DNA of 40,116 nucleotides. Origin: an uncultured Candidatus Saccharibacteria bacterium (GTDB lineage Bacteria; Patescibacteriota; Minisyncoccia; Minisyncoccales; Staskawiczbacteraceae). The stretch spans positions 1 to 40,116 of the forward strand of contig CAZIJR010000001.1 in assembly GCA_964539855.1 (NCBI GenBank), in the 5' to 3' direction. Shown here piece by piece: positions 3,197-25,562 of the stretch. The notes under the pieces were generated by a model. It was not told the DNA's origin. It searched no databases and was given only the letters and a program-made list of their open reading frames with translations. The position numbers were made by a program, and so were the translations under genes. The stretch's first letter is position 1. Every line of letters begins with the position of its first letter.

Positions 3197-3203
3197 AATA
3201 TAG

Positions 3204-3797: not shown

Positions 3798-3858
3798 CAA
3801 ATATGGACAAACTAAATAAAATAGAGTATACTATATTATTATAAGTAAAAAAGAGAGT

Positions 3859-6880: not shown

Positions 6881-6897
6881 AAACTTCGCTTTTATAG

Positions 6898-7875
6898 ATG
6901 CCTACTCAAACAGAAGAACAACAAGCAAAAGATTTTTTGAAAAGGGCTGAAATAAGGACCATGAAAAAGGATTTAAGATCCTTAAGAGAAGGTGATGCTT
7001 TAAAAGAAAGGGACAAAATAGCTAAAATTCAAACGATAGAAGAGCAACAAACAGAGAAGATAAAAAAAGAAGCAGATAGGTCTGGCATGGAAAAAGTCCT
7101 TTCAGCAAATGAAAATGAAGAAAAAATTGCTGAAAAAGATTTAAAAAACTACGCCACAGAAGAAGAACGCCAGCAAATATTTTTACTTGAATCCCAGAGG
7201 CTAAGTTTTGAAAAACAAATAGACGCGATTGACAAAGAAAAAAATCCGGCTTTGAAGCTTGAAAAAAATAAACTTCTCTTACAAAAAAGAGACGTGCAAG
7301 CTAAGCTAACTTCCGTCTTAGAAGAAGAAAAAAGGATAGAGGGAGAGCAGGGCGTAGTAACAGAAAGCGCAAAAACCAGTACAATAGCTTCTCAAAAAAA
7401 ATCCTTAGAACAACGGAGGTGGGATATAGATAAAGATATACAAGAAATAGAAAAAAAACGATGGGCGCTGGAAAAACAAATACAAGACATAGATAGCAAA
7501 ATAACAGAAATAGACCGAAGATCAGAACAGATTACAACTGAAAAGAATGGCTTAAGGGATAAGGTTTTGGGCATGGATAAGTCGTTGAGAGACATATATT
7601 CTGGTGTTATAGCTAAAACAGAGGAAAGAAGAAAGGGCCAAGCGCAGGATCAAATAACACAAAAAGAAGCGCTTTCAAAAACAAGGACAGAAGAAAAAGA
7701 AAAAATACAAAGAGAACAATGGGGGGGATTAGCTGTTCCAAAGAAAAAAGAATTTTTAAAATCAGCTCCCGCCAGCTTTAAAGAAAAACTGGCAGAATCA
7801 ACAGCCAAAGAGGAAGAACAAAGAGCCAAATTTATGCAGAATATAAACCAAATTCCAATACCACGTAAAAAATAA
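6898..7875 (+). CDS. hypothetical K/E/Q-rich coiled-coil protein
   Basis: 325-aa ORF with heptad-like charged composition and no TM segments. Antisense ORFs have shadow composition. Confidence 0.6.
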   Translation: MPTQTEEQQAKDFLKRAEIRTMKKDLRSLREGDALKERDKIAKIQTIEEQQTEKIKKEADRSGMEKVLSANENEEKIAEKDLKNYATEEERQQIFLLESQRLSFEKQIDAIDKEKNPALKLEKNKLLLQKRDVQAKLTSVLEEEKRIEGEQGVVTESAKTSTIASQKKSLEQRRWDIDKDIQEIEKKRWALEKQIQDIDSKITEIDRRSEQITTEKNGLRDKVLGMDKSLRDIYSGVIAKTEERRKGQAQDQITQKEALSKTRTEEKEKIQREQWGGLAVPKKKEFLKSAPASFKEKLAESTAKEEEQRAKFMQNINQIPIPRKK

Positions 7876-8288: not shown

Positions 8289-9419
8289 TTATTTATAGCT
8301 TATATTTGCTCCGACTGCGTATTTTGCCAGAGGGTTTGTTGATCCCACAACCTGAAAGTGCAAATGGCACCCTGTTGGTCCAACTACGTTTCCTGTATTA
8401 CCTACTGACCCAATTCTCTCGCTACGCGTAATTTGAGCTCCTGGTTTTACATAAACATAAGAAAGATGACCATAGTAAGTAACTGTTCCATTAGAGTGCA
8501 AAATGGTCACATAATTTCCCATACCTAAATTCCACGCATTGTTAAATACAGCCCTCTGAACCACGCCAGAAGCTGCAGCATAAACAGGGGTTCCGCACTT
8601 ATTGGCAACATCAACGGCATTATAATAGTGAAGGCCTTGGGTTATTTTTCCTTCAACGGGGAATATAAAATAATTATCCGCCAACGGAATTTTGTTTACA
8701 GAAGGCGCCACTTTGGGCATTACTCCCCCAGGAACAACTAAAATATCTCCAATAAAAATATCTCCCTGATTGACAAGGTTGTTAAAGGCAATTATATCAC
8801 TTTGCTTGGATTTATAGGTTTGTGCAATCCCCGAAACAGTATCTCCTGACTTTATAATATGTAAAACCCCGTCAACCGGAAGAATTGCCAAATTCTGTCC
8901 CACTTTAATAACCGAAGGCTTTGTAAGACTATTAGCCAAAAGCAAAGTATCCACAGATATTCCGTATGAGTTTGCAATTGAGGCTAAAGTGTCTCCCGGC
9001 TGTACAGTATATTCCACAATTTCTTTGCTATTTTTGCTTTGCGTGTCGCTTCCAATTATGTCTCCCAAAACCTTTCCTGTGACAAGAGTAGGCGTGGACA
9101 CACCTGCTAGCGTATTATTTTGTATAATTTTTAAATCCGGGCTTTCTGTAGCAGCTGCACTTGCTTGGCTGGAAAATAAACTACTTGCGCTTGCTTCAAA
9201 ATTATTATTAAAAAAAGAATTAAAAAATACTACACGGCTGTTATTTAGCCCGCTTACATTAATAGAGCTTTGGCAAGATCCGCACATCAACCCAAACATA
9301 ATAAATGCGGTGAGCCCAAAATAAAAAGAAGGGTTTTTCAGCAATCCTTTTGAATGTCTTTTTTCCAACCTCCTTGCCGTACTCCTGATATATTTGGTTA
9401 ATTTTTTGGGTAAACCCAT
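8289..9419 (-). CDS. membrane-anchored LysM-domain M23 family metallopeptidase (peptidoglycan hydrolase)
   Basis: N-terminal TM segment. Two LysM repeats (YTVQPGDTLASIANSYGISVDTLLLAN and HIIKSGDTVSGIAQTY). M23 motifs HYYNAVD and GPTGCHLHFQV. Confidence 0.9.
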   Translation of the reverse strand: MGLPKKLTKYIRSTARRLEKRHSKGLLKNPSFYFGLTAFIMFGLMCGSCQSSINVSGLNNSRVVFFNSFFNNNFEASASSLFSSQASAAATESPDLKIIQNNTLAGVSTPTLVTGKVLGDIIGSDTQSKNSKEIVEYTVQPGDTLASIANSYGISVDTLLLANSLTKPSVIKVGQNLAILPVDGVLHIIKSGDTVSGIAQTYKSKQSDIIAFNNLVNQGDIFIGDILVVPGGVMPKVAPSVNKIPLADNYFIFPVEGKITQGLHYYNAVDVANKCGTPVYAAASGVVQRAVFNNAWNLGMGNYVTILHSNGTVTYYGHLSYVYVKPGAQITRSERIGSVGNTGNVVGPTGCHLHFQVVGSTNPLAKYAVGANISYK

Positions 9420-9507: not shown

Positions 9508-10374
9508 ATGGAGTTAACTTCCCCTAAAATAATAAAGGAGCTTCTCTCAAAAAATGATGCAAAACCCAACAAAATTCTTGGGCAAAATTTTTTGATAGAC
9601 AAGCACATTCTTAAAAAAATTATTGACTCGGCAGACTTAAAATCAACTGACCTTATAATAGAGGTAGGCCCAGGCATTGGCACATTAACTCAAGGGCTGG
9701 CTGAAACCGCAGGCAAAATTATTGCTGTAGAAAAAGATATAAAAATGTTAAATGTTTTATCAGAAACTCTAAGTGCCTTTAAAAATATAGAAATAATAAA
9801 CGCCGACATCTTAAAAATAGATCCTAAGCTCTATACTCAAGGCCCATATAAAATAGTTGCCAACATTCCATATTATTTAACGTCCCCTTTAATTAGAATA
9901 TTTTTAGAATCTGCCAACCCACCAGAAGACATTATTTTGATGCTTCAAAAAGAAGTTGCCCAAAGAATTTGTGCAAAGCCAAATAAAATGAGCTTGTTAG
10001 CGGTGTCTGTGCAGTTTTATGCAGAGCCCAAAATTATTTCTTATGTTTCCAAAAATTGTTTTTGGCCTGCTCCAAAAGTGGATTCTGCCATAATTAGAAT
10101 CACTCCATCTTCTTCCTTGTCATTCCCGCGCAAGCGGGAATCCAGAGAACTTTTCTTTAAAATAGTAAAGGCCGGTTTTTCCCAGCCCAGAAAACAGCTG
10201 GCCGGTAATCTATCTAAATCTCTAAAAATAAAAAAAGACACTGTTGATAGGTGGCTTTTAGAAAATAACATAAAACCCACACAGCGCGCTGAAACGCTAT
10301 CGGTGGGCGACTGGCAAAACCTAACAAAATCCCTCCCGAAAGCCGGGCTTTCGGGAAATAAAATATGCCGATAA
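9508..10374 (+). CDS. rsmA: 16S rRNA (adenine1518/1519-N6)-dimethyltransferase
   Basis: LGQNFLID, EVGPGIGTLT (SAM motif I), NIPYY and PKVDS motifs. The C-terminal 13 aa are encoded by the REP-like palindrome. Confidence 0.93.
   Translation: MELTSPKIIKELLSKNDAKPNKILGQNFLIDKHILKKIIDSADLKSTDLIIEVGPGIGTLTQGLAETAGKIIAVEKDIKMLNVLSETLSAFKNIEIINADILKIDPKLYTQGPYKIVANIPYYLTSPLIRIFLESANPPEDIILMLQKEVAQRICAKPNKMSLLAVSVQFYAEPKIISYVSKNCFWPAPKVDSAIIRITPSSSLSFPRKRESRELFFKIVKAGFSQPRKQLAGNLSKSLKIKKDTVDRWLLENNIKPTQRAETLSVGDWQNLTKSLPKAGLSGNKICR
10119..10145 (+). repeat. 27-nt hairpin repeat inserted in frame in rsmA
   Basis: GTCATTCCCGCGCAAGCGGGAATCCAG: an 8-bp stem with a GCAA loop, encoding SFPRKRES. A second copy lies at 39974..40000. 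Confidence 0.8.
10334..10356. repeat. REP-like 23-nt perfect palindrome (left flank of the RAYT-like gene)
   Basis: TCCCGAAAGCC-G-GGCTTTCGGGA, identical to the copy at 11094..11116. Confidence 0.85.
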
Positions 10375-11093
10375 GAAAAATACAATTTGTGCCAGCTGAA
10401 TTTTATCATATTTTTAACCGTGGCAACGGTAAGCAGAATATTTTTTACCATGACAAAGACAGATATAGATTTCTTCAAGCAATTTATCTATCAAATAATG
10501 TTAATACCTTTCTAGGCATTGAGGAATTAGAAAGAGGTAAAAGTGGCTATGCCCTTGCTGACATCAAAAATATCCTCGAAACAAACATGATTCCCCACGA
10601 TCCATTAGTTAGGATTTGTGCAGACTGTTTAATGCCGAATCATTATCATTTTTTAATTCAAGAAATAAAAGAAGGTGGCATTAGTAAATTTATGCAAAGA
10701 CTGGGCACTAGTTATGCAAAATATTTTGTCACAAAACATAAACGTCCAGGAAGTTTATTTCAGGGACGATTTAAGGCGACACACATAGAAAACGATGACC
10801 AACTAAAATACTTATTGGCCTACGTTAATGCCATTAACCCTGCGCAGCTTGTTGAGCCGAATCTAAAGGAAAGAGGAATTAAAAATCTTAAAAAAGCTTT
10901 AGACCAAGTTAATAATTATAAATGGAGTACCCATTTTGAATTTATGGGAAAAAGAGAATCAATTCTTATAGATAAGGGGTTATTAGGAGAAAATTATCCG
11001 AACGCAAAAATCTATTACGCGTTTATAAAAGATGTATTACAGGGGAAAGAAAATAAAATGTGGACAACAATAGAAAAATTAGCACTTGAATAA
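10365..11093 (+). CDS. IS200/IS605-like HUH (Y1) transposase, REP-associated tyrosine transposase (RAYT)-like
   Basis: HUH motif in CLMPNHYHFLIQ. Also ...GSLFQGRFKA... and a Tyr motif in LKYLLAYVNAINP, as in the TnpA(REP)/IS200 family. Confidence 0.8.
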   Translation: MPIRKIQFVPAEFYHIFNRGNGKQNIFYHDKDRYRFLQAIYLSNNVNTFLGIEELERGKSGYALADIKNILETNMIPHDPLVRICADCLMPNHYHFLIQEIKEGGISKFMQRLGTSYAKYFVTKHKRPGSLFQGRFKATHIENDDQLKYLLAYVNAINPAQLVEPNLKERGIKNLKKALDQVNNYKWSTHFEFMGKRESILIDKGLLGENYPNAKIYYAFIKDVLQGKENKMWTTIEKLALE

Positions 11094-11235: not shown

Positions 11236-11544
11236 ATGGCTGAAGGCAACCTTACTGGACCAGAAGGAATATTGATGTTGTGTGTGGCTGGAATATTAGA
11301 TGGTATAGGCCTTATCCTTTTTTGCCTCTCTTGGCTAGGAATAGACGACTATGCCATATTAGACGTTTTGGGAATGCTTATAATAGGCGGGTGGATGTTT
11401 TTTAGGGGTGGCGGACTAAACGAAAAAATTATCAAAAGAGGCCTAAGAAGGTTTGGAATAGCCACCGTTGTAGAACTAGTACCATTTTTAGGCGGCATTG
11501 CCCCCTCTTGGACCATACTCGTCTGGAAAGAGCTTAAAGATTAG
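11236..11544 (+). CDS. small integral membrane protein (3 predicted TM segments), first gene of the T4SS-like cluster
   Basis: 102 aa with hydrophobic segments ILMLCVAGILDGIGLILFCL, VLGMLIIGGWMFF and VELVPFLGGIAPSWTILVW. No family recognised. Confidence 0.6.
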   Translation: MAEGNLTGPEGILMLCVAGILDGIGLILFCLSWLGIDDYAILDVLGMLIIGGWMFFRGGGLNEKIIKRGLRRFGIATVVELVPFLGGIAPSWTILVWKELKD

Positions 11545-11556
11545 CTTTATAAAAGT

Positions 11557-13503
11557 ATGTTAAATTATTTTTTAAAAATCCTCAAAAACAAAAAAATACT
11601 ATTTTTTGTCTTTTTGTCTATTGTCATTTTTTGTTTTGGTTTTTTTTCAACATCAATTCAAAAAGTGCATGCAGTTAGTGGAGGTGATCCATCGCAGTAT
11701 GATGCTTGCGAGCGAGGCTGTCATACAAATTATACGGGGGATGAACTGGACGATTGCATTTCGGCTTGTATGTGGGAACTTGGGCACCAAACAGACAGTT
11801 TTACAAAAATATTGGGAGAGGAGTTGGCGCGAGAGTATGGAAAAATGGCCGAGGTGATGGCTGTTCCATTTGCTACTTTTGTTTTTGCGATAGGGGCCGT
11901 TATTATCAGTATAGGAGGATCGCTTTCTGTACTAGCTTCTACTATTTTGGTAACAGTGCTTGGTATGCTTGACAGTGTAGGTTGTTATACATGTATGACT
12001 AATACTGCTGTGGCAGCGGGTTGGCCCATGGTTAGAGACTTGGCCAACATGTTTGTAGTACTGGGGTTTGTGGTTATAGGATTAGCTACTATATTAAGAT
12101 TTAGAGAATATGAGGCAAAAAAACTTCTACCAAAACTAATAATAGTTGCTCTTTTGATAAATTTTTCACTCCCCATTTGCGGTATATTTATTGACGCTTC
12201 AAATATAACTGCAAAATATTTTTTAAAAAGCGGAGGGTTTTTTGCAAACAGTTGGGGGCAAACATTGGACGGCCAATTAAAGATACTCTTTAACGCCTGG
12301 AAAATTGACGATTACATTAAGGCCTCTATACAATTATTAGGTTCAATAGGGGGTATAACATTTTATAATATAATGGCTATGGTAATTTTTTTACTTTATG
12401 CCTTTTTGTATATTTTTAGAATTATTGCTCTTTGGATATTAGTTATTTTATCTCCGTTGGCCTTTGTTTTTTATGTTTTTCCGTTTACAAAAAAGTTTTT
12501 TGATATGTGGTGGAGCAACTTTTTGGGATGGTGTATTATTATTGTTCCTATATCCTTTTTTGTTTGGATAGCTGATAAAATAATGGCGGGTATAGTCCTC
12601 ACAAGTACAACCCCCGGCGAACCCCCGAGCTTTTTCAGTTATTTAATCCCTGGGTCATTTATGATAATCGGATTTCTTTTTTCAATACGAATGTCAGCGA
12701 TGGGAGCGAGCGCTGCGGTTGGGGCGGCAAAATGGACTGGCGGCAAAATCACCGGCGCCACTGGAGGAACTCTAAAAGGATTAGCTAATACAAGAGCTGG
12801 ACAAAAAATTAGCAGGGGAGCTGTGCTGGCAGGTGAAAAAATGGGTCTTGTTGCGCCAGGCACAACCAACTTGATGAAGCAAAAACATATGAAAGAACAC
12901 GAAAGCGAAAAGAGGGTTTCCACCCTGCCAGACGACCAAGTGATGAAAGGCGGATTTACGGGCAGAACACCTATAAGCAAGAGGGGGAGGAACGACAAAT
13001 TTGAATTTATAAAACAATCTGTTGAAAGTGGCAAAGCAGGAGAATGGCTGAACAAGGGTGAAATTACCCAAGATCAGTATGATAAAGGAGTAGCATACTA
13101 CAAATCACACGGTGGTCCAATAGGCGCGCTGGCTGAAAAAGATTACCGCGTAGCGGGACACGGAGCAGCTAATCCAACAATTGCCCAAACAAAAAAAAAT
13201 GTACAATTTTCAGAAAATCTTTCAAAAGGTATGTCTGGCAAACAGCTTAGGGGCATAAGCGCAGATGATATGGATAGAGCGCTTAATCCTGATATGCACG
13301 ATATAATTAAAGAACAGTTCACTCCAAATACCGCGAAACAATTTAAAACTTCTGATCCAACATTAAAAACTGCTTTGAGAACCCACCTTGGGGCAGTTGG
13401 CACGGCCGGAACGCTGGCAAACGACATTCATATAGCAACCGATCCGAAAGAAAAGGCTAAGCTCCAAAAAGTATATGATGCACTAGACAAAGCAACTATT
13501 TAA
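11557..13503 (+). CDS. VirB6/TrbL-like polytopic membrane protein with a roughly 250-aa soluble C-terminal extension
   Basis: Signal/anchor segment plus a 4-Cys segment, then about 7-8 TM helices. ILSPLAFVFYVFPFTKKFFDMWWSNFLGWCIII resembles the conserved TrbL/VirB6 core (xPlxxxxxxFxxTxxxFxxW). Confidence 0.55.
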   Translation: MLNYFLKILKNKKILFFVFLSIVIFCFGFFSTSIQKVHAVSGGDPSQYDACERGCHTNYTGDELDDCISACMWELGHQTDSFTKILGEELAREYGKMAEVMAVPFATFVFAIGAVIISIGGSLSVLASTILVTVLGMLDSVGCYTCMTNTAVAAGWPMVRDLANMFVVLGFVVIGLATILRFREYEAKKLLPKLIIVALLINFSLPICGIFIDASNITAKYFLKSGGFFANSWGQTLDGQLKILFNAWKIDDYIKASIQLLGSIGGITFYNIMAMVIFLLYAFLYIFRIIALWILVILSPLAFVFYVFPFTKKFFDMWWSNFLGWCIIIVPISFFVWIADKIMAGIVLTSTTPGEPPSFFSYLIPGSFMIIGFLFSIRMSAMGASAAVGAAKWTGGKITGATGGTLKGLANTRAGQKISRGAVLAGEKMGLVAPGTTNLMKQKHMKEHESEKRVSTLPDDQVMKGGFTGRTPISKRGRNDKFEFIKQSVESGKAGEWLNKGEITQDQYDKGVAYYKSHGGPIGALAEKDYRVAGHGAANPTIAQTKKNVQFSENLSKGMSGKQLRGISADDMDRALNPDMHDIIKEQFTPNTAKQFKTSDPTLKTALRTHLGAVGTAGTLANDIHIATDPKEKAKLQKVYDALDKATI

Positions 13504-15505: not shown

Positions 15506-15913
15506 ATGGAAAGATATCCTATACCACAGTTTATTGAACAAGAAGGAAAAATTGCTTTCTTTATTTCCTTCAGACAATTTTTTTACCTTGTTGGGGCAGG
15601 AGTGGTTTGTTTTCTATTATATTACGTTTTGCCGTTTTTCCTTTTTGTTGTCATAAGCATTGCAATTTTTGGAGGAGCTGTTGCTTTGGCTTTTGTGACT
15701 ATAAATGGAGTCCCCGTACTAAATATGATTTTGGGTTCTATAGGTTTTGCAGTGGGAGGTAAAAATTACACATGGAAAAAGAAAGAATCTCCTTATCCTT
15801 TCAAACCTATATCCAGAACTAAAATAAAAAAATTAGATCAAGGTCCTGTTTTACAAGCGCAGAAAAGCCAGCTGAGAAAAATGCAAACAAAAGTTGAAAC
15901 ACAAGAAAAATAA
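15506..15913 (+). CDS. PrgI-family / VirB3-like small membrane protein
   Basis: N-terminal ...IPQFIEQEGKIAFFISFRQFFYLVGAGVV... followed by two TM helices, located immediately upstream of the VirB4 homolog as in Gram-positive T4SS loci. Confidence 0.55.
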   Translation: MERYPIPQFIEQEGKIAFFISFRQFFYLVGAGVVCFLLYYVLPFFLFVVISIAIFGGAVALAFVTINGVPVLNMILGSIGFAVGGKNYTWKKKESPYPFKPISRTKIKKLDQGPVLQAQKSQLRKMQTKVETQEK

Positions 15914-15916
15914 ATT

Positions 15917-16594
15917 ATGGCCGAATCCGCAACACAACAATTTTTGGAAATACAAGATATAAGAGAGGGGGTTTTGTTGCTAAAAAATAACCAGATAAGG
16001 GGAGTTTTGATGGTCTCTTCTATAAATTTTGCTTTAAAATCAGAGGATGAACAAACTGCCATTATTTATGCTTTCCAAAGCTTTTTAAACTCTTTAGATT
16101 TTTCATGCCAGATTGTAATCCAATCCAGAAATATAAATATAACTCCGTACCTGGACAGCTTAAAAGATTTGGAGGAAAGGCAGCCTAATGAATTACTAAG
16201 AGAACAAACCAAATCTTACCGCGAGTTTATAAAAAATATGGTAGTAGGGGATACTGTTATGACCAAAAACTTTTATGTGGTAGTGCCTTACAACTTGATG
16301 GAAGTTTTTGGAATGAAGGGCGCTGGAAAACAATTTAATTTTTTAAAACAATTTTCAGGAGGACAAAACGGACCCGGAGGCACTCCACAGCCCATGAAGG
16401 ATGATGATTTTCAAAGATGTAAAACCCAGCTTTGGCAAAGAATGGAATATCTGGCCATGGGGTTACGAAGGTGCGGGCTAGAAGCAATGCCTTTGACCAC
16501 CCCCGAGCTTATAGAACTTTTTTGGGCAATACATCATCCCGAGCAAGCAGAAGTGGGATACTACCCAGAAATTTTACCCGAACTATTAAAATAA
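15917..16594 (+). CDS. VirB4 N-terminal region (CagE/TrbE/VirB-like) encoded as a separate ORF
   Basis: QQFLEIQDIREGVLLLKNNQIRGVLMVSSINFALKSEDEQTAIIYAFQSFLNSLDFSCQIVIQS follows the pattern at the start of Gram-positive VirB4 homologs. The ORF is in the same frame as the next ORF, separated by TAA ACT. Confidence 0.5.
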   Translation: MAESATQQFLEIQDIREGVLLLKNNQIRGVLMVSSINFALKSEDEQTAIIYAFQSFLNSLDFSCQIVIQSRNINITPYLDSLKDLEERQPNELLREQTKSYREFIKNMVVGDTVMTKNFYVVVPYNLMEVFGMKGAGKQFNFLKQFSGGQNGPGGTPQPMKDDDFQRCKTQLWQRMEYLAMGLRRCGLEAMPLTTPELIELFWAIHHPEQAEVGYYPEILPELLK

Positions 16595-16597
16595 ACT

Positions 16598-18409
16598 ATG
16601 GCTTTAGATTTTTTAAACAATCTTTTTGGAAAAAAACAGGAAAATCTGGCTGACAATAAAATCTTCGAGGAAGAACAATTTGATGTAAGAGATATTATTG
16701 CCCCACCATATATTGGAGTAATGCAAGACAAAATAAAACTTGGCGAAAGGTTTGCCAAATCGTTTTTTGTATTTTCCTATCCCAGGTATTTAAATACCGG
16801 CTGGTTCTCGCCCGTAATTGATTTAAACACTCCAATGGATATTTCCTTTTTTATACATCCTGTAAGTTCAGAACTTATTTTAAAAAAATTAAGAAAAAAG
16901 GTAACCGAGGTTTCTTCAGAAATAATGGAAAGAGAAGAAAAGGGATTAATCAGAGACCCTGCGCTACAAACAGCCTACCAAGATATTGAAGCTCTTCGCG
17001 ACAATTTAATGACGGCCCAAGAAAAAATGTTTCGCTTTGGGGTTTACATCACAATTTATGAAAACTCCGAAAAAGAATTGCGCGACACAGAACTTACTTT
17101 AAGATCAATTTTTGAATCCAGACTAATTTACATCAAACCGGCTTTATTTAAACAAAAGGAAGGATTTATTTCCTGCAGCCCTTATGGCATGGACTTAATA
17201 GATGTACACACTCCCATGGACACGGCTCCACTTTCCACTTCTTTCCCTTTTATTTCCTTTGATTTAAGCTCTAATGAAGGAATTTTATATGGAATAAACA
17301 GGCACAATAATTCTTTGGTTTTGTTTGACAGGTTTAGTTTGGAAAACGCCAATATGGTTTGTTTTGCAAAATCAGGCTCAGGAAAATCTTACGCAATAAA
17401 ACTAGAAATTTTAAGATACTTGATGCAGGGGGTAGATGTAATTGTTATTGACCCTGAAAATGAATATGAATTTTTGGCTGATGCTGTGGGTGGAGCGTTC
17501 TTTAAAATTTCTTTGACTTCCCAAAATCACGTTAATCCTTTCGACTTACCCATTCCCGGTCCCGACGATAATCCTGATGACATTTTAAGGTCAAATATTA
17601 TAAACTTAGTGGGACTTTTAAGAATTATGCTGGGCGGATTGAGCGCGGAAGAAGACAGCGTTTTAGACGAAGCACTATCTGAAACCTATGCTGTTAGAGA
17701 TATAACCGGACAATCAGATCCAAAAACCTGGCAAAATAATATTCCCTTAATGTCTGACTTTGAAGAAATTTTAGAAAGCATGACAGGGACTGAATCATTA
17801 GTAAAAAGAATAAAAAAATATACAAAAGGAACTTTTTCCGATTTTTTCAACCAACACTCAAATATTTCCATAGACAAAAGCTTTGCTGTTTTTGGAATAA
17901 GAGACATGGAAGACTCTCTAAGACCCATTGCGCTTTATATTATTATGCGTCATGTCTGGAATACTGTTAGAACACAGCTAAAAAAGAGAATTTTGGTTAT
18001 TGACGAGGCGTGGTGGCTTATGCAGTCAGATGACGGAGCATCGTTTTTGTTTGGAATGGCAAAACGAGGTAGAAAATACTGGCTAGGGCTTACCACAATA
18101 ACCCAGAACGTCTCTGACTTTATGGGTTCAGATTACGGAAGAGCAATTATTACCAACTCTTCACTTCAACTTTTAATGAAGCAATCTACTGGTGATATTG
18201 AGCTCGTACAAAAAACTTTCAACTTAACAGAACAAGAAAAATATTTGCTTCTTGAAGCTGCTGTGGGTGAGGGTTTATTTTTTGCGGGAAGAAAACACGT
18301 GGCAATTTCTGTAGTTGCCAGCCAGACAGAAAATGAAATTATAACCACAAGTCCCGCAGAGGTCTTAAAAATGAGAGAAGACAAAAGAAAGCTCTCTGAA
18401 AATATATAA
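16598..18409 (+). CDS. VirB4-family T4SS ATPase (middle and ATPase domains)
   Basis: Walker A in FAKSGSGKSYAIK and Walker B in RILVIDEAWWL. Also ...ITQNVSDF... and the VirB4-type region upstream of the P-loop (FAKSFFVFSYPRYLNTGW...). Confidence 0.85.
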   Translation: MALDFLNNLFGKKQENLADNKIFEEEQFDVRDIIAPPYIGVMQDKIKLGERFAKSFFVFSYPRYLNTGWFSPVIDLNTPMDISFFIHPVSSELILKKLRKKVTEVSSEIMEREEKGLIRDPALQTAYQDIEALRDNLMTAQEKMFRFGVYITIYENSEKELRDTELTLRSIFESRLIYIKPALFKQKEGFISCSPYGMDLIDVHTPMDTAPLSTSFPFISFDLSSNEGILYGINRHNNSLVLFDRFSLENANMVCFAKSGSGKSYAIKLEILRYLMQGVDVIVIDPENEYEFLADAVGGAFFKISLTSQNHVNPFDLPIPGPDDNPDDILRSNIINLVGLLRIMLGGLSAEEDSVLDEALSETYAVRDITGQSDPKTWQNNIPLMSDFEEILESMTGTESLVKRIKKYTKGTFSDFFNQHSNISIDKSFAVFGIRDMEDSLRPIALYIIMRHVWNTVRTQLKKRILVIDEAWWLMQSDDGASFLFGMAKRGRKYWLGLTTITQNVSDFMGSDYGRAIITNSSLQLLMKQSTGDIELVQKTFNLTEQEKYLLLEAAVGEGLFFAGRKHVAISVVASQTENEIITTSPAEVLKMREDKRKLSENI

Positions 18410-18425: not shown

Positions 18426-21400
18426 ATGCTAAAAAAAACAAAAATAAAAACTTTTTTGCAGCTGGCTGTTGTTAGCTTGTTTTTGACTACCGCAAAATTC
18501 GCGCATGCTCTTGAAGCAAGTTATCCTACAATATTTGGCCTGTCTTTGGGCGACAGCCCTTCGCTTCCCGAATATGCAAAATACTTTTTTAATATTGGCA
18601 TAATCTCAGCGGGAATTTTGGCCGCTCTAGTAATTGCGTTTGGCGGAATTTATTATTTAGTAGATTTTGGCAGGGGAAAGTTCAAAAGCGAAGGAATGGA
18701 GTGGATAAAAGCTGGCACGCTCGGACTTTTGCTTATAATGTGTGCCTACTTAATTGTTTACACTATAAACCCCTACTTGGTTATTTTTGATTTGAAAGGA
18801 CTGGCCCCTCTTGCCTTTCTTTCCAATTTATTTAGCTCTCCGTCATCTTCTCTGCCAGTTGAAGTTTATACAGAAATACCCATAGGAATATTGACTGAAA
18901 ACCTTTTAACCCGAACTATGGACTGCTATAATTTTGACGGCAATGGCGACCCTATTGAAGGAGAGCCCCTAACCGTAGACGATGGTAGAAAATTATACGG
19001 CCCCACCTATTTAAAACACGACCAGGCAGACTGCTTCTTAAAGCTGGCTGAGGCTATTGAAAAAAAGTCAGACATAGCCAACCAATTATCAATAAAAATT
19101 GCCGAGTTAATGCAACAATGCCAATGTTCTGAAGGCACTTGCGATACGCAATGGAACTCTAAATGCCCGGAAAAGCCACCTTGCAACAAGGCCAAAGGTA
19201 TATGCAAGCCCATTTTAGATGAAAGTTGCTGTCCTGCTGACGTAAAAAAACAAATTGAGGAGGGCCTCATAACTCTTGACCAAAATGAGGGAGGGACTTC
19301 CTGCCCGGGCTCTGAGAAAAAATATACGGGCCTAGAAGAATTTAGGTCAAAACAATTTGGTAGTAACTATTTTGCTATAAAAACTTTTGTAGAGATTCAA
19401 CCTCCAGCGAAAGTAAACGGTAAAGATATCTGGATAATAAATAACGGGAATTGCCAAGTCTGCATTTATAATTGCCCGGCAACATGCACGGAAGGTGATA
19501 ACCAGTGTTTAAATAAAAAACAAAACTGTGAAGAGCAACAATCAGAATGCCTAGTAGGAAGACAAAAATGCCTACAAAAAAACAGCCCTTGGTATAAATT
19601 AAAACTTATAGACCAGCTCACATATCTTAGAGGACGAGCCGAAGAAATAAAACAAAAAGTTCAGCAAGACATAAATAATTTAACAAGCGCTGAAGACTTA
19701 TTGGGAAAATGTTACTTGGCAGACGCTTATGTAGATTTTTTTAAGGTGTACGAAAAAACCGATAAAAAAGAAAAAACTATCCTTGTTCAAAAAACCTTTT
19801 CGGACCCGGAAACTCAAAAAATTGTTAATCCTGCCAAGTATTGCGAAGGTTTCCAATATAATAATTCAAGCTGTTATAGTCAATGTCAAAAAGTTTGTCC
19901 TGGTACGAGCAGTCAAGAAGTTGGTTATTACAAAAAAGCTCAGAGTTGCAATAATATAGCTCTAAAAGAAAGACAAAAGTGTCTGGAGCAACAGGCAAAA
20001 TATATAAAAGAAATTTATGACAATCGCTCGTGCATTGCAGGCGCTAGCCCTTTCAAAACTTTTCCCGAGTGTATGGATAACTGTAACCAAAATTGCTTGA
20101 GTTCTTGTGAAAAATCCTGCCTAAGCGCCGAAGAACTAAAAAAATGCCAGGATAAATGCAACAATGATTCAAAATGCCTGCTGGACAATGAAGACAAATG
20201 CCTAATAAACTTTAACAGGCTAAAAGATTGCTCTGATTCCACAGCCTGTGTTGCAGGATGCAGTGGCGATAATGACTGCATACAAAAATGTAATGTCCAA
20301 TATAATGACATTAATTTTGTAAAAAATTGCATAGAAAATTCTGCCTCACTTTGCACTTATTGTTCAGACCAGTATGCTGGTTATCCTGAATGCCTAACGC
20401 CTTCATATTATAATCAGGGCAACTATTCTTCCTCTTTTTTGTGTAGTGATCCTAATTCCCAGCTCTGCAAATATGGAATTACAACAACAGATGTAAATGG
20501 AAATACAGTTAGCCAAACCGCTGATAGTTGCACGGTTCAAAACCTGGAAACTTCAAAATGTCCAGTAAACTCTAAATGCCCAGAATGCCCGTGCGACATC
20601 GTCAGCGACCAGCCTACAGAAAACAGTTATGCTGGTCAAACAGAAGAACCAACGGGCACAGATTGCTCTGATGCAAATAAAAACAACGGAGAAGACACAG
20701 CATACAGGGTGTGCAGCCCGACTTGTGACAACTACGCTTTTAATGATGACCCATTAACCTTTTACTGTAATCAAACCTGGTGGAAAAAAGATGAAACAAA
20801 AAATACAGAACCTCTTGGAAGTTCAAAAATCTGCCCTAAAAATAAAGAAATACCTGTAGGCAGGACCGTGGACGATGCAGAAGCCTGGGGACAAGCATTT
20901 ATGCAAGTCATAAATGATTTTACCCAAAAAGCAGACGAAATGATAAATTATATTAAAAAAATTGGGGATGAAAAAAAATACTGTCAGTGCGACAGCACTT
21001 GCGGAGGGTCAGAACTTGTTTGCAAACCAGAATGCGAAGACTTTACAGTTTTTGATGAAGATAACAAAAAAATTGGGGAAGGTTGTGCTCAAAGTCCATG
21101 TTCGGGAAATCCTTGCCAAAAAATGATCAATCTTCTTTTAGGAAAAGAGGCGGGAAATGAATTTACAGACAACGACCCAGATGCTTGTCCAGCAGGACAA
21201 AATAGCGGATTTGAAGGCGTAAATTGGTATTTAGAACAAGTAAAAGATGGACTTAAAGAAGTAGAAGATTTTGTGCTAAAAGACAAAAGATCAGACATAT
21301 TAAAGGAACTTGAATATTCACGACAAGGCATAAATACTTGCAGTACAAACTATGACAAAGAAACAAGTATTTTAAGCTGTACAAGAGTGGAAGATGAAAT

Positions 21401-21551
21401 TATGCCACCCTTGATAGCAACTTCAAACCCGGCTAAAACAATTGTTGGCACAAATAAACCTGTAGCTTCATATTGCTACGGACAAGAGTTGGGAAAAATA
21501 TTAGGCACAGAACCTTTGGCCGACAATTGGTTTTGCTGTCAAACAAAATAA
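18426..21551 (+). CDS. giant cysteine-rich surface protein with an N-terminal VirB2-like (pilin-type) membrane hairpin
   Basis: Signal peptide (..FAHA|LEASYP), LPEYAKYFF, and two TM helices ending in YTINPYL. About 900 aa follow, holding nearly all of the protein's about 72 Cys by my hand count (CxC and CxxxC clusters). Confidence 0.7.
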   Translation: MLKKTKIKTFLQLAVVSLFLTTAKFAHALEASYPTIFGLSLGDSPSLPEYAKYFFNIGIISAGILAALVIAFGGIYYLVDFGRGKFKSEGMEWIKAGTLGLLLIMCAYLIVYTINPYLVIFDLKGLAPLAFLSNLFSSPSSSLPVEVYTEIPIGILTENLLTRTMDCYNFDGNGDPIEGEPLTVDDGRKLYGPTYLKHDQADCFLKLAEAIEKKSDIANQLSIKIAELMQQCQCSEGTCDTQWNSKCPEKPPCNKAKGICKPILDESCCPADVKKQIEEGLITLDQNEGGTSCPGSEKKYTGLEEFRSKQFGSNYFAIKTFVEIQPPAKVNGKDIWIINNGNCQVCIYNCPATCTEGDNQCLNKKQNCEEQQSECLVGRQKCLQKNSPWYKLKLIDQLTYLRGRAEEIKQKVQQDINNLTSAEDLLGKCYLADAYVDFFKVYEKTDKKEKTILVQKTFSDPETQKIVNPAKYCEGFQYNNSSCYSQCQKVCPGTSSQEVGYYKKAQSCNNIALKERQKCLEQQAKYIKEIYDNRSCIAGASPFKTFPECMDNCNQNCLSSCEKSCLSAEELKKCQDKCNNDSKCLLDNEDKCLINFNRLKDCSDSTACVAGCSGDNDCIQKCNVQYNDINFVKNCIENSASLCTYCSDQYAGYPECLTPSYYNQGNYSSSFLCSDPNSQLCKYGITTTDVNGNTVSQTADSCTVQNLETSKCPVNSKCPECPCDIVSDQPTENSYAGQTEEPTGTDCSDANKNNGEDTAYRVCSPTCDNYAFNDDPLTFYCNQTWWKKDETKNTEPLGSSKICPKNKEIPVGRTVDDAEAWGQAFMQVINDFTQKADEMINYIKKIGDEKKYCQCDSTCGGSELVCKPECEDFTVFDEDNKKIGEGCAQSPCSGNPCQKMINLLLGKEAGNEFTDNDPDACPAGQNSGFEGVNWYLEQVKDGLKEVEDFVLKDKRSDILKELEYSRQGINTCSTNYDKETSILSCTRVEDEIMPPLIATSNPAKTIVGTNKPVASYCYGQELGKILGTEPLADNWFCCQTK

Positions 21552-21568
21552 AATTATATTTGTAAAAT

Positions 21569-23017
21569 ATGTTCAAAAAATTTAAGCGCGTAATAATATC
21601 CCTTATAATTATTTTATTCTTTTTTGGTGCTCACTCCGCGCTTGCGCTTGAAAGAAAATATCCTTCACTTCCCATGATAGGAAGTCCAGAAAATTGCACT
21701 GGAAGCGGGTGTTTGCCTTTGTTTGTTTCATATTGGTTTACATTAGCCATTATTGCGGCTTGTATTTTAGCGCTTATCTCTTTTACGGTTGGAGCTATTG
21801 GGCTAATAAACCCGAATCCAGACTCTCACAATAATGCCAAAGATAGAATGAAGGGCTCTATTTTGGGGCTGGTTCTGTGCCTTTCAGCCTTAATATTATT
21901 ACAAACTATAAACCCAAATATCGTGGGCCTGCAACTGACCCCTTTGCCAGGCGCTCCTGGGATTTATTATGCCAAGGGGAGTGAACTGACAGCTGTCGCT
22001 TTTTCTGTGAATGATTTTACCAACTCCCAGGCGCGCCAAGACGGCTACAACGCAATAAAATACAAGTGTAGCGCAGAAGGCGGAGGAACAGGACCCAATC
22101 TTTTGATTTGGAAATTCCCCAATCCCGGACTCGAAGGAAATAACGACTTAAACAGTGTCACTATGGCGGTAAAAAGTTGTGGTCAATCAGAACCACTTGG
22201 AGGCGTAGGATCATTTAAAATGGCCTTTGAAGCTCCTGGCGTATATTATTATGCCAACACAGGATGTTCTGGCTATATGTCTTATGCAAACACCTCAACC
22301 CAAAATTCAATATCAGCTCCTTTTATAGGTGTGATAAAATCAGTAAAAATTGTTAACGACCCGGAAAACAATGATTATTACGGTGCTATTTTTCACGGAG
22401 TACCGGATGCCTCAAAGGGCAGCGATTGCACCAACCCAATTTTCACTGCCGACGGCGGTTGTAAAAATTTATCTGACTATTTGCTTTCTCCTAATTTTGG
22501 TGCATTTTCCGCCAACATCTTTAAATGGGCGAAAAACAAATCTTCCTCATCGGGAGATGGAGTTTGGTTTTACAGCGACAGCAACGGCTGGGACAGCGGA
22601 AACAAATCTGGGGTATTTTATATAAATTCACAAAATATTGGTACCTACGCATCCCAAAAAGCCGCGGATTTAAAGTTTAATTATGCGGGGGTTGATAGCG
22701 CCCAAGCCATAACCTGTACTTCTTATCCTTCGTGCAGGGATATTGATTGGGAAAATAATGAGTATCCAGATTGTTGTGGATGCTCTTCGCCAAAAGATTG
22801 GAGCGCTGGAGAGGGCAACAAGTGTGCAGGATCTATAAAGTTTGGGGGGAACGGATATTTAGTAAGTCTTTATATTACTTATAGCGATATAGACGGCAAT
22901 GACAGATTGTTTTGCCAAACCTTTGAAAAAGATACTCCCAACCTAAGCACGGCATGGTCTGCTTCTCCTGGAGGCGCAGAATTAGACCACATTGATATAA
23001 TTCCAATAGTTCAATAA
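21569..23017 (+). CDS. pilin-hairpin fusion protein, paralog 1
   Basis: Signal peptide (ALA|LERKYPSLP), a two-TM hairpin ending QTINPNI, PLPG, then about 360 aa extracellular. C-terminus ...HIDIIPIVQ. Confidence 0.7.
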   Translation: MFKKFKRVIISLIIILFFFGAHSALALERKYPSLPMIGSPENCTGSGCLPLFVSYWFTLAIIAACILALISFTVGAIGLINPNPDSHNNAKDRMKGSILGLVLCLSALILLQTINPNIVGLQLTPLPGAPGIYYAKGSELTAVAFSVNDFTNSQARQDGYNAIKYKCSAEGGGTGPNLLIWKFPNPGLEGNNDLNSVTMAVKSCGQSEPLGGVGSFKMAFEAPGVYYYANTGCSGYMSYANTSTQNSISAPFIGVIKSVKIVNDPENNDYYGAIFHGVPDASKGSDCTNPIFTADGGCKNLSDYLLSPNFGAFSANIFKWAKNKSSSSGDGVWFYSDSNGWDSGNKSGVFYINSQNIGTYASQKAADLKFNYAGVDSAQAITCTSYPSCRDIDWENNEYPDCCGCSSPKDWSAGEGNKCAGSIKFGGNGYLVSLYITYSDIDGNDRLFCQTFEKDTPNLSTAWSASPGGAELDHIDIIPIVQ

Positions 23018-23034
23018 TAAAACCACTTATAAAA

Positions 23035-24372
23035 GTGCATAAAAACTATTATAAACATTTTGCTTTTCTGTATACTACCGTTTTGCTGTTTTTTTTGAAC
23101 AGTTCCTTTGCTTTTGCGCTTGAAACAACTTACCCTTCTTTGCCTGGATTTCCGGCAGTTACAGATAAAAGCAATCTACCAGAGTATGTTGCCTATTTTT
23201 TTGGATTGGCAATAGCAGTAGCTGCAATTTTAGCCGTTATCTTTTTAGCAATAGGTGGGCTACGATTAATAACGTCTATAAGCAGTCCTTCTGCCCATAC
23301 TGACGCGTGGAATACGATAAAGGGCGCTATCTTAGGGTTATTATTATTAATGGCTGCTTTCTTAATTTTGCGAACAATAAATCCTGATTTTATAGAGCCC
23401 GTTTTAACTCCTTTGCCTGATGTTGATGGAATTTTTTACTATGATGGAACCAATAAACTGCCCTCCCCTATGTCAGAATCAAATACGCGCAATGTGCCCG
23501 AAGGGTATGACCGGTTAATTTATGTATGTAGTTCTGGTCCATCTTTGTTTGTATGGAAGTTTCCTGAAACAAATTTTCAAGGGATTGATGGCGCCTACAC
23601 ACAAGCTATAAACTGCGGAGATTCTATTAATATTACAGATGCCAGATCTTTTAATTTAGCGTTTGAGTCCACGGGTATTTATTATTGTATGGGAGGTTGC
23701 AGTGAAACAGGGACAATATGCTCTGGGCTTATGTCTAAAACAAACACATCAAGTGGACAAATATCCGAGCCTTTTAAAAACAATGTGAAATCGGTACTGT
23801 TTGTAAACGATCCTACACAAGCTCTACAATATGGCGCTGTTTTCCATTTTTTTGATGACCCAAAGCAATCAGGTCCATGCTCTTTTATTTATAACCTAAC
23901 GAGCACAGACAAAAAAAGAAGTTGTTTTAATATGGGGAGTAGTCCTTCCTCGTCAGTTAGTGTTTTTGCTTGGAACTATAAAACCCCTGAAACATCTGGA
24001 GCGGGGGCAAACTTTTATAGTGAACCATGGGGGAATGCCGTAGGCGCCCGCGCTGGAAATTATTTTCTCAGTAGTGGCAACATAAAAAATTATTTTCATA
24101 TTCCTACTAATAAAATAATTTTTAATTATTCTGGTATTAATAGGCCCACCAACTATATCAGCCTTTACCAAAGTTTTTTGCAACGCCCAGGGTCAATTTA
24201 TTTAGAAGGAAATTACCTTTTTGTTCTAAACAATCTCATCTCTACCAACGATCATGGAGAAAAATTGTTTGTTTGCCAAATTTTTTATAGTGATATTTTT
24301 AATATAAAAGAAACTGAGTTTTTTGCAAAAGAAAATAAAATTGAAAACATTGAAATACTGCCGATAAAATAA
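23035..24372 (+). CDS. pilin-hairpin fusion protein, paralog 2 (GTG start)
   Basis: FAFA|LETTYPSLPG, LPEYVAYFF, RTINPDF, PLP. It shares WKFP, AFExxGxYY, KSVxxVNDP and YGAxFH with the preceding gene. C-terminus ...NIEILPIK. Confidence 0.7.
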   Translation: MHKNYYKHFAFLYTTVLLFFLNSSFAFALETTYPSLPGFPAVTDKSNLPEYVAYFFGLAIAVAAILAVIFLAIGGLRLITSISSPSAHTDAWNTIKGAILGLLLLMAAFLILRTINPDFIEPVLTPLPDVDGIFYYDGTNKLPSPMSESNTRNVPEGYDRLIYVCSSGPSLFVWKFPETNFQGIDGAYTQAINCGDSINITDARSFNLAFESTGIYYCMGGCSETGTICSGLMSKTNTSSGQISEPFKNNVKSVLFVNDPTQALQYGAVFHFFDDPKQSGPCSFIYNLTSTDKKRSCFNMGSSPSSSVSVFAWNYKTPETSGAGANFYSEPWGNAVGARAGNYFLSSGNIKNYFHIPTNKIIFNYSGINRPTNYISLYQSFLQRPGSIYLEGNYLFVLNNLISTNDHGEKLFVCQIFYSDIFNIKETEFFAKENKIENIEILPIK

Positions 24373-24374
24373 TT

Positions 24375-25562
24375 ATGCCAAAAAATCATACAATATCTTT
24401 TATAATTTTATTCTTTATTATATCAGCCGGGTTTTTTTTCCTGCCTCAAAATAAAGTTTTTTCCGCCGACTTACAACTTGAAGTTGCGTATCCTGTTTTG
24501 GGAACAGGAGCAAAAATAACAGCACAGTCAGATTTAACCGAATATCTAAAATATGTTTTTGACTTTGGAATAATGATAGGATTTTTCTTTGTTTTTCTTT
24601 CTTTGGCCTGGGCCGGAGCTCTTTATTTTTTATCTCCGGCAATTCCGGGAGCATTAAATGACGTAAAAGACAGGATTTCGGGCGCTATAACAGGAATGGT
24701 TATTTTAGTACTTTTGTATTTAATTATTGTAACAATAAACCCATACCTGGCTATTTTTAAGCTTGGCGAGATAGAACCCGTACCACTGCCAGAGCCTAAT
24801 ACTTCTTACCCGGGGGTTACTTTATATGAATCTGAAAATTGTTCTGGCACTTCAAACACTTACACCAACAACGTATCTGATTTGGGAAGCTTAAACAATA
24901 AGGTGCAGTCTGTAGGCATTTCACAAAACCCAGAGGAAAAGCTTTATTATATAGCTGTTTTATATGATATAAACGGTAATTGGGGAAAATGCCAATATAT
25001 AAACCCAAACAACCCTTGCGCGCCAAAAATAGATCCATTTGCCGCATCAGCTTCCATTTACCAATATGATTTTTATCCAAAAGGTGATGGCATTTACTTA
25101 TACCGCAAACCGTTTGATCAAATCCCAGGGAAAGAAGAAAATAAAAAAGGGGGATATTTAAAAATCACTAATTCCCAGATTGGTAAAGGAACTTTGCTAT
25201 ATCTTCCTAATCTGCGCTTTACGGGCATGTCTTCTAATTATAATAATTTAAGAGATTGCTCTGTTCCTGAAGAAGAGCAAGATTGCGCGAAATACGACGA
25301 AAAAGGAAAGTGTACACAAAAAGAATGTCCTAAATTATCAGAAAAAAACATATCCTCAATATATATATCAGGAGATTATCTAGTTTTGCTTGTATATTTT
25401 GCACCCGGCGACAATCCACAAGGGCCTTGGACTTATTGCCAGGCCTATGCCTCTAACAATGACGTGAACAAAGAAGGGCCGGAGCAAATAAAATGGGATG
25501 CTGTAAGGAATCAGGGGAAAGACCCGAATTGGATAGCTATTATTCCAATAAAAGAAAAATAA
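24375..25562 (+). CDS. pilin-hairpin fusion protein, paralog 3 (more divergent)
   Basis: LEVAYPVL, LTEYLKYVF, VTINPYL, PLPEP. VQSVGISQNPEEKLYYIAVLYD aligns with the KSVKIVNDPENNDYYGAIFH motif of paralog 1. C-terminus ...WIAIIPIKEK. Confidence 0.7.
   Translation: MPKNHTISFIILFFIISAGFFFLPQNKVFSADLQLEVAYPVLGTGAKITAQSDLTEYLKYVFDFGIMIGFFFVFLSLAWAGALYFLSPAIPGALNDVKDRISGAITGMVILVLLYLIIVTINPYLAIFKLGEIEPVPLPEPNTSYPGVTLYESENCSGTSNTYTNNVSDLGSLNNKVQSVGISQNPEEKLYYIAVLYDINGNWGKCQYINPNNPCAPKIDPFAASASIYQYDFYPKGDGIYLYRKPFDQIPGKEENKKGGYLKITNSQIGKGTLLYLPNLRFTGMSSNYNNLRDCSVPEEEQDCAKYDEKGKCTQKECPKLSEKNISSIYISGDYLVLLVYFAPGDNPQGPWTYCQAYASNNDVNKEGPEQIKWDAVRNQGKDPNWIAIIPIKEK

Follow-up and report, generated by a model that had tools for sequence, protein, structure and literature searches.

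We examined a window of 40,116 nucleotides (the whole stretch analysed, positions 1 to 40,116 of contig CAZIJR010000001.1) from an uncultured Candidatus Saccharibacteria bacterium, an ultrasmall symbiont of the Patescibacteria assigned by GTDB to the Staskawiczbacteraceae, and in it an array of genes whose products join a pilin-like membrane hairpin to large extracellular domains. Three of these genes, here called p1, p2 and p3, had been described as adjacent paralogues in a sequence-only reading of the DNA, and a fourth open reading frame (ORF) with the same membrane module, p0, lies upstream of them. Together they make up the distal part of an operon for a type IV secretion system (T4SS) of the Patescibacteria type, which is chromosomal and lies near the replication origin, with the gene order prgI/virB3, trsD-like, virB4, p0, p1, p2, p3. 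The four genes are as follows (aa, amino acids).

18426 to 21551, forward strand: p0, 1041 aa; signal peptide, pilin hairpin and a Cys-rich ectodomain of ~920 aa ending in CYG...DNWFCC
21569 to 23017, forward strand: p1, 482 aa; signal peptide (aa 1-26), VirB2-like pilin hairpin (aa 27-118), linker and ectodomain
23035 to 24372, forward strand: p2, 445 aa, GTG start; architecture as in p1, a duplicate of the middle gene
24375 to 25562, forward strand: p3, 395 aa; signal peptide, pilin hairpin (aa 34-125) and two crystallin-type domains

The paralogy of these genes is supported both by pairwise and by profile comparisons. BLASTP aligns p1 with p2 from end to end (34% identity, E = 1e-55), while p3 matches p1 in the pilin module (E = 2e-10) as well as the ectodomain (E = 1e-5), and p2 in the N-terminal module (E = 3e-15). 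Homologue searches returned 61 proteins for p1 and 106 for p3, and family alignments were made of 52 homologues (p1/p2 family) and 96 homologues (p3 family). When the families are compared profile to profile, their pilin modules are clearly related (prob 99.6%, E = 7e-25), and the p0 module is similarly related to those of p1 and p3 (prob 99.5-99.6%). Two ectodomain segments also correspond in hhalign, namely p3 144-233 with p1 223-322 (prob 98.6%, E = 8e-16) and p3 234-395 with p1 323-482 (prob 98.8%, E = 1e-16). Formal alignment hence gives statistical support to the paralogy described in the sequence-only reading, and the ORF calls agree with its three adjacent genes, including the gaps of 17 nt between p1 and p2 and 2 nt between p2 and p3. 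Two of its statements need to be amended: the three genes are homologous, but p0 extends the array to four, and the module is common to all of them, but the first ectodomain domain of p1/p2 (p1 residues 128-222) is absent from p3. Its picture of divergent ectodomains on a constant module is not supported, the three ectodomains being homologous to each other. A search for DNA repeats among the array genes found nothing beyond a 25-nt stretch encoding ALE..YP, with no cassettes and no conversion tracts, indicating that the paralogues are old.

The module common to the four proteins resembles the pilins of conjugative T4SSs. In p1 it is located as follows.

21647 to 21922, forward strand: p1 pilin module, aa 27-118; LERKYP..., helix 48-80, loop with AKDRMKG, helix 84-114 ending in TINP

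Both p1 (31.1 bits) and p2 (28.0 bits) exceed the gathering cut-off of the Pfam family PF18895, T4SS_pilin (26.6 bits), which is matched by 51/52 members of the p1/p2 family at E <= 0.1 and by 56/96 members of the p3 family. This bears out the proposed architecture of a pilin hairpin followed by an ectodomain. In the same search p3 itself has no match at E <= 1 and p0 scores 12.8 bits, under the cut-off. The family PF04956 (TrbC) is essentially unmatched (1/52 p1/p2-family members, weakly; E = 0.064), and NCBIfam gives only sub-threshold matches to 'pilin-like conjugal transfer protein'. The AlphaFold2 models of p1 and p3 (mean predicted local distance difference test, pLDDT, 88.3 and 88.7) show a signal-peptide helix and then two long helices (48-80 and 84-114 in p1; 54-85 and 93-121 in p3), and hydropathy places the hydrophobic helices of p0 at residues 57-75 and 96-114.

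Across the 96 and 52 homologues, the module features named in the earlier description are invariant or almost so: ALE..YP after the signal peptide (earlier given as LExxYP), LPEY, the two hydrophobic helices, the KDRxxG loop, TINP and the proline-rich linker. In the loop connecting the helices, the D-R and G residues are nearly invariant. Median identity is higher in the pilin module than in the ectodomain in both families (p3 family, 62% vs 49-52%; p1 family, 52% vs 34-44%). The pilins of solved T-, N- and F-pili are described as two hydrophobic helices with a positively charged loop facing the lumen, and Arg91 of VirB2 as needed for pilus formation (bioRxiv 10.1101/2022.04.28.489814). The conserved D-R/K loop of the array proteins is comparable to the positively charged loop that VirB2, TraM and TraA expose to the lumen. 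Like VirB2, TraA, TraM and TrbC, the array proteins combine a signal peptide, two hydrophobic helices and a short positive loop with an adjoining VirB4 ATPase gene; unlike them, they belong to a monoderm host, have no detectable sequence match to the solved pilins and carry large folded C-terminal domains, whereas classical pilins are 60-130 aa long. The array proteins are not hairpin-only, since they measure 395-1041 aa with C-terminal domains of 270-920 aa, and just one gene in the window (3331 to 3714, 127 aa) fits the size of a small pilin.

The ectodomains of p1, p2 and p3 are predicted, from models and profiles, to consist of tandem double Greek-key beta/gamma-crystallin domains, a fold known from eye-lens proteins, with conserved cysteines, two in p3 and the same two plus an extra beta-rich N-terminal domain in p1/p2. 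Their domains and C-terminal strands are distributed as follows.

21950 to 22234, forward strand: p1 domain A, aa 128-222; beta-rich, seven strands in the model; absent from p3
22235 to 22534, forward strand: p1 domain B, aa 223-322; beta/gamma-crystallin-type; homologue of p3 domain 1 by hhalign
22535 to 23014, forward strand: p1 domain C, aa 323-482; crystallin-type, containing insertions; homologue of p3 domain 2 by hhalign
22982 to 23008, forward strand: p1 C-terminal strand, aa 472-480, ...LDHIDIIPI; assigned as strand 472-480 by DSSP
24804 to 25073, forward strand: p3 domain 1, aa 144-233; beta/gamma-crystallin domain by Foldseek, hhalign and phmmer
25074 to 25559, forward strand: p3 domain 2, aa 234-395; also crystallin-type, carrying a Cys-rich insertion
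25530 to 25550, forward strand: p3 C-terminal strand, aa 386-392, WIAIIPI; assigned as strand by DSSP, in blocks with pLDDT above 90

A Greek-key fold had been suspected for p3 with low confidence, and structure comparison, phmmer and hhalign now all point to it. In Foldseek searches of the Protein Data Bank (PDB), the p3 model aligns to two-domain gamma-crystallins over ~255 columns (prob 1.0, E = 7e-5 to 5e-4, target-normalised template modelling score, TM-score, 0.60-0.68). It also aligns to the single microbial domains of the Protein S N-domain, flavollin, M-crystallin and clostrillin (prob 1.0, target-normalised TM-score 0.70-0.80, root-mean-square deviation 2.0-2.7 Å, 20-25% identity), the E-values of all its crystallin matches ranging from 7e-5 to 1e-3. 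With the whole chain of p1, Foldseek gave one good local match in the PDB, to M-crystallin (prob 0.98, target-normalised TM-score 0.73); the comparison of the p1 model with a viral library gave low TM-scores and was uninformative. When the p3 ectodomain was searched against the whole sequence library with phmmer, only 108 clusters were recovered, nearly all of the same architecture, and the tail of this list (E = 3.6e-12 to 4e-4) contains proteins that score 86-238 bits on Pfam Crystall. The Crystall-positive proteins were used to build a canonical crystallin domain profile, which is matched in hhalign by p3 domain 1 (prob 95.1%, E = 3e-8) and p1 domain C (prob 84%, E = 7e-6). Searches of PDB sequences with p1, p3 and the family profiles gave marginal crystallin matches (flavollin, E = 0.008, with the family profile; Protein S, E = 0.098). 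On Pfam Crystall itself (PF00030, cut-off 25 bits), p3 scores 16.6 bits, below the cut-off, and p1/p2 have no match; at E <= 0.1 the p3 family includes 4/96 members matching Crystall and 12/96 matching Crystall_3. Through the domain homology to p3 the fold extends to p1 and p2, and it is among the best-supported points of the analysis.

By inspection, a variant of the crystallin signature is seen as Y151-x4-C156-x-G158 ... S180 in p3 and Y227-x4-C233-x-G235 ... S258 in p1. The first Greek key of p3 domain 1 reads GVTLYESENCSG...NNKVQSVGI and the second YYIAVLYDINGNWGKC...SASIY, and the signature of p1 domain B is GVYYYANTGCSG...IKSVKIVNDP...YGAIFH. Several motifs noted as shared by the paralogues also map, by inspection, to crystallin elements, with (I/V)KSV(K/L)(I/F)VNDP and SF(K/N)(M/L)AFE containing the Ser strands, and GVYY and YGA(I/V)FH corresponding to the following a-strands. 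Sequence similarity between the crystallin-type domains of one protein is not significant when searched for as internal repeats. In their double Greek keys, tandem domains, variant form of the Y-x4-aromatic-x-G ... S pattern and terminal 'S(I/L)xVP'-like strand, the array domains resemble the microbial beta/gamma-crystallins Protein S (1nps/1prr), flavollin (3hzb), M-crystallin (3hz2) and clostrillin (3so0). They differ from these in having an invariant Cys in place of the second aromatic residue, a degenerate Ca2+ motif, long insertions in domain 2 including a Cys-rich hairpin, and a fusion to a membrane pilin hairpin.

All three crystallin-type proteins end in a short strand with the consensus IxI(I/L)P(I/T). 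A pattern of two hydrophobic residues, proline and one of IVTLMA occurs within the last 14 residues of 85/96 p3-family and 45/52 p1/p2-family members, usually 1-3 residues from the end, so that the C-terminal motif reported for the window is kept in the orthologues. The sequence-only reading had also raised docking of this strand onto a neighbouring subunit, and here our results point elsewhere. In hhalign alignments, ELDHIDI of p1 corresponds to the final strand of canonical crystallins ('ND.iSSi.V'), GSIKF to the Ser strand of one Greek key, and YLVSLY, CQTF and DTPNL to the next motif. The canonical repeats of the matched crystallin proteins end in 'SSIKIPKG' or 'SSLRVP', which resemble IxIIPIK, and the C-terminal segment is a high-pLDDT strand in the monomer models of both p1 and p3. 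Judged from these alignments, the motif would most simply be the last strand of the last Greek key, conserved because the crystallin domain needs it to fold, with no docking strand required. Unlike the donor strands of chaperone-usher subunits, it stands at the last-strand position of a complete crystallin domain.

The ectodomain of p0 is unrelated to those of p1-p3 and has a conserved C-terminus of its own (CYG...DNWFCC). The protein contains 72 Cys, with many conserved Cys columns in the ectodomain, and the ~920-aa region has no match in Pfam, NCBIfam or profile comparison. Its orthologues are 935-1460 aa long and keep the same position in all related loci that cover it. In L032, a more distant genome, a 326-aa protein (6654 to 7634) ends in ...CYDDNFFCCLLK, which resembles the p0 C-terminus, with a p0-like NFFCC at the very end; this suggests that the C-terminal module of p0 also occurs as a separate gene.

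The remaining T4SS components of the window and the end of the operon are listed below.

3331 to 3714, forward strand: plain VirB2-like pilin of 127 aa, without ectodomain; PF18895 34.1 bits (cut-off 26.6), weak TrbC/VirB2 match
11557 to 13503, forward strand: VirB6/TrbL-like polytopic membrane protein, T4SS platform; PF04610 TrbL E = 1.7e-5, 25.1 bits, slightly below the cut-off of 25.9
15506 to 15913, forward strand: PrgI/VirB3-like protein, first gene of the operon; PF12666 PrgI 31.5 bits (cut-off 27)
15917 to 16594, forward strand: TrsD/TraC-like protein resembling the VirB4 N-terminal domain; NCBIfam TrsD E = 1.5e-6, VirB4 N-terminal region E = 1e-9
16598 to 18409, forward strand: VirB4-type T4SS ATPase; PF19044 P-loop_TraG 89 bits, AAA_10 45 bits
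25566 to 25602, no strand assigned: terminator-like bidirectional hairpin with a 17-bp stem, between p3 and the convergent jag

The genes prgI, trsD-like and virB4 lie directly 5' of p0 on one strand, with gaps of 3-17 nt, and the 17-bp-stem hairpin marks the end of the operon; beyond it come the convergent jag-yidC-rnpA and then dnaA and dnaN. The assignment of the TrsD/TraC-like gene is also suggested by an orthologue with a precomputed PF26593 TraC-like match. The VirB6/TrbL-like gene is found 2 kb upstream of the operon from PrgI to p3, and its orthologue in L007 is syntenic with T4SS genes. Directly 5' of it, a 102-aa hydrophobic ORF (11236 to 11544) has no family match, and a similar stretch, GPEGI(L/I)M...LD..GI...C...L....GILD..GM.I..GWM.FRG, is present in a 185-aa protein of L032 (4606 to 5163); on this resemblance the ORF may be an unrecognised membrane component of the T4SS. 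The plain 127-aa pilin can be aligned to the modules of the fusion proteins and is a candidate for the major pilin of the same system. Its gene is flanked by tRNA-Arg (3203 to 3275, reverse strand) and tRNA-Lys (3725 to 3798, forward strand), ~12 kb from the T4SS operon.

The organisation of the array was compared among L001 and 29 genome loci, all from uncultured Patescibacteria labelled as Staskawiczbacteria, 'Patescibacteria group' or Saccharibacteria (the last probably mislabelled); NCBI places Staskawiczbacteria in the Parcubacteria group. Where the contigs suffice, the gene order is prgI, trsD-like, virB4, p0, middle gene(s), p3, jag-yidC-rnpA and dnaA, and the PrgI/VirB3-like gene keeps the first position in the related loci reaching that far upstream. 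Both p0 and p3 are single-copy in all loci covering their positions. The middle gene, of the p1/p2 type, has one copy in most loci and two in the window, L001, L003, L009, L014, L020 and L021, and a rough neighbour-joining tree without bootstrap indicates several independent duplications, of which the one that generated p1 and p2 is common to the window, L003 and L009. In L007, the only rearranged locus seen, the block of prgI, virB4 and p0 has been turned round with respect to p3, jag and dnaA, and a middle gene was not detected beside p3.

Over the same genome pairs, the fusion proteins show much lower identity (p3 37-65%, middle gene 25-48%, p0 27-52%) than the core proteins VirB4 (74-89% with its orthologues) and DnaA (77-90%). 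This relative protein divergence was used in place of the ratio of nonsynonymous to synonymous substitutions, as the closest relatives, near-identical copies aside, are only 57-67% identical in protein and synonymous sites are therefore saturated. In L032 the protein at the p3 position (P0268) consists of a pilin module and a Crystall domain that exceeds the Pfam cut-off (26.6 bits; cut-off 25). Within the same origin-proximal T4SS operon of that genome, another gene (5172 to 6644) fuses a pilin module (local hidden Markov model E = 6e-19; PF18895 23 bits) to an M23 peptidoglycan peptidase (62 bits). From one lineage to another, then, the pilin module bears different outside domains.

Arrays of pilin genes as such are already known from Patescibacterial T4SSs. 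A survey reports, from 383 Patescibacteria assemblies, arrays of 2-11 VirB2-like pilin genes in the vicinity of virB4 and dnaA, and proposes that they aid adaptation to different hosts (PMC12102498, Quinonero-Coronel et al. 2025). In Southlakia epibionticum, the one species tested, a pilin array is reported to be essential and the T4SS to be needed for epibiotic growth (PMC10633639, Wang et al. 2023). Genes with the T4SS-pilin domain are listed among the most highly expressed genes of unknown function in methanogen-parasitising Patescibacteria (PMC10936435), and the role of the Patescibacterial T4SS is described in one account as completely unknown (PMC11665869). As the two array papers portray them (PMC10633639, PMC12102498), the published arrays resemble ours in their tandem PF18895-type genes (2-11) beside virB4, prgI, trsD and virB6, in their frequent proximity to dnaA with no relaxase or coupling protein nearby, and in the strong divergence of the paralogues (~25% identity on average). 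They differ in that VirB2 is small and extra domains are given, in the parts of those papers that treat them, solely for VirB1 homologues and none for VirB2, whereas each array member here has a 270-920-aa extracellular domain, three of them with the crystallin fold. The published arrays are also variable, in contrast to the fixed series of p0, middle gene and p3, and they are stated to be most abundant in Microgenomatia and Saccharimonadia, whereas the present lineage belongs to the Parcubacteria group. A literature search on crystallin together with Patescibacteria or pilin returned nothing relevant and no description of a pilin-crystallin fusion, so the fusion to a crystallin fold and the constant set of p0, middle gene and p3 appear to be undescribed as far as we found.

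We consider it fairly probable that p0-p3 are pilin-module proteins handled by the T4SS and displaying crystallin-type domains outside the cell, most plausibly as minor or tip subunits on a fibre of small pilin that makes host contact. In this scheme p0-p3 would insert into the membrane with both termini outside, and the VirB4/VirB6 machinery would treat the hairpin like a VirB2 pilin and assemble a pilus-like or stalk structure. If the hairpin loop faces the lumen, the C-terminal crystallin domains would point outwards, and p0-p3 could take minor, tip or cap positions on a fibre built of the plain 127-aa pilin (3331 to 3714). Such a role seems the most likely one because the domains are bulky and the set of p0, middle gene and p3 is fixed across species. 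The crystallin domains might then serve as stable, disulfide-braced modules for host contact in an epibiotic lifestyle. A surface role is supported by the divergence of the fusions, which is far faster than that of the VirB4/DnaA core, and by the high expression of T4SS-pilin-domain genes reported for methanogen-parasitising Patescibacteria (PMC10936435). Beyond the gene structure, homology, fold and synteny observed here, we infer polymerisation, a location in the pilus and adhesion. A functional analogy may be drawn with other fibres, in which VirB5 sits at the T-pilus tip and GspH-K and the minor pilins of type IV pili are minor subunits. These are likewise small fixed sets of different pilin-like proteins, some bearing additional globular domains, whose genes accompany those of the machinery and which are believed to mediate contact and to prime or cap the fibre; they have no homology to the array proteins, and the analogy is functional only.

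Several points weigh against this proposal. The 'pilin' label depends on PF18895, itself an inference, plus gene context. A search of PDB sequences with the pilin-module profile retrieved no solved VirB2, TraA or TraM pilin even at E <= 10, and Foldseek searches of the PDB with the p1 and p3 models retrieved none of the three either. The axial rise of VirB2-type pili is ~2.5-2.7 Å per subunit, and by a rough estimate a domain of 30-100 kDa on each subunit would crowd such a helix, so that the proteins may never polymerise. According to the section of a review that deals with the subject, no T4SS pilus has been observed in any Patescibacterium and a pilus is only possible (PMC12857230). As to the fold, profile comparison finds no significant similarity between domain A of p1/p2 and the crystallin profile or other array domains, the second signature aromatic (Y/F-x4-Y/F-x-G) is replaced by an invariant Cys, and the later motifs are more degenerate. 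Microbial crystallins bind Ca2+ through the motif N/D-N/D-x-x-S/T-S, and inspection found no canonical copy of it in p3 (NNKVQS; family consensus KNxINS) or p1 (GVIKS). The pairing partners of the C-terminal strand are deduced from the alignment and not from coordinates.

A different arrangement, which we regard as doubtful but the strongest of the alternatives, is that the proteins stay anchored in the membrane and never polymerise. The hairpin would then be a two-helix anchor or a dock for the T4SS, and the crystallin and Cys-rich domains a fixed cap, coat or contact pad around the secretion channel. The very large ectodomains, ~920 aa in p0, would be accommodated in this way, and one conserved copy per distinct orthogroup suggests a defined hetero-complex and not a fibre. 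The M23 peptidase on the L032 module is an enzyme suited to the envelope, and the statement that no pilus has been seen in Patescibacteria (PMC12857230) would be expected. Protein S, to which p3 is structurally matched, is a surface coat protein of Myxococcus spores, and this too would suit a coat. However, the pilin features (charged loop, TINP end and ALE..YP) are more conserved than the ectodomains, which is unexpected of a simple anchor, the genes are co-operonic with virB4, and a plain pilin of the same family is present.

We judge it improbable that the array encodes surface subunits that are interchangeable or vary antigenically while their pilin module stays constant, each donating its C-terminal strand to a neighbour as in donor-strand complementation, which is close to what the sequence-only reading had in mind. 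The several independent duplications of the middle gene and the fast evolution of the ectodomains would fit such variation, and arrays elsewhere in Patescibacteria have been proposed to serve host adaptation (PMC12102498). However, p0 and p3 are single-copy, position-fixed orthologues in all complete related loci and only the middle gene varies, between one and two copies, so the combination of variant subunits and docking strand fits the duplicated middle gene only. Nor are there DNA repeats or signs of cassettes or recent gene conversion, and the C-terminal strand corresponds in alignment to the last strand of the canonical Greek key and is modelled with high confidence in the monomers. The suggestion that the similarity is compositional or accidental and that the ORFs are not genes has practically no likelihood and is ruled out by the homology statistics (E = 1e-55 and 1e-16 to 1e-25), the more than 160 homologues, the conserved synteny and the confident folded models of p1 and p3.

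If the proposed display of folded domains by this lineage's 'pilins' is correct, the search for the surface that contacts the host narrows to a few proteins, and as their ectodomains are soluble, disulfide-braced and confidently predicted, they can be expressed and tested for ligands. The fusion to a membrane pilin is a new context for the beta/gamma-crystallin fold, and it implies that counts of 'VirB2 homologues' in genome surveys mix proteins of very different architecture. The domains seen on the hairpin so far are the tandem beta/gamma-crystallin, the giant Cys-rich domain and, in another lineage, the M23 peptidoglycan peptidase. We tentatively raise the idea that the VirB2-like hairpin of Patescibacteria is a general carrier module, which lets the T4SS display varied folded domains, either on a pilus-like organelle or at its tip, and that this organelle touches the host envelope and opens it. 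If so, this would be a 'decorated' conjugative-type pilus, not known from any other bacteria, and would give a concrete role in host contact to the essential, functionally unexplained T4SS of Patescibacteria.

A few other features were found in the window and the related loci. The VirB4 orthologue of L024 (1419 to 5216) owes its length of 1265 aa to an intein that includes a homing endonuclease of the LAGLIDADG type (Intein_splicing 68 bits, LAGLIDADG_3 61 bits). On the reverse strand of the window, a gene at 8289 to 9419 combines LysM with an M23 peptidase, for which a VirB1-like role is possible, and another at 37733 to 39082 encodes a PilB/T2SSE-type ATPase of the kind found in type IV pili. 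An ORF at 10365 to 11093 with an IS200-like Y1 transposase domain (32 bits) overlaps the end of an rRNA adenine dimethylase gene (RrnaAD/ksgA-type) by 10 nt.

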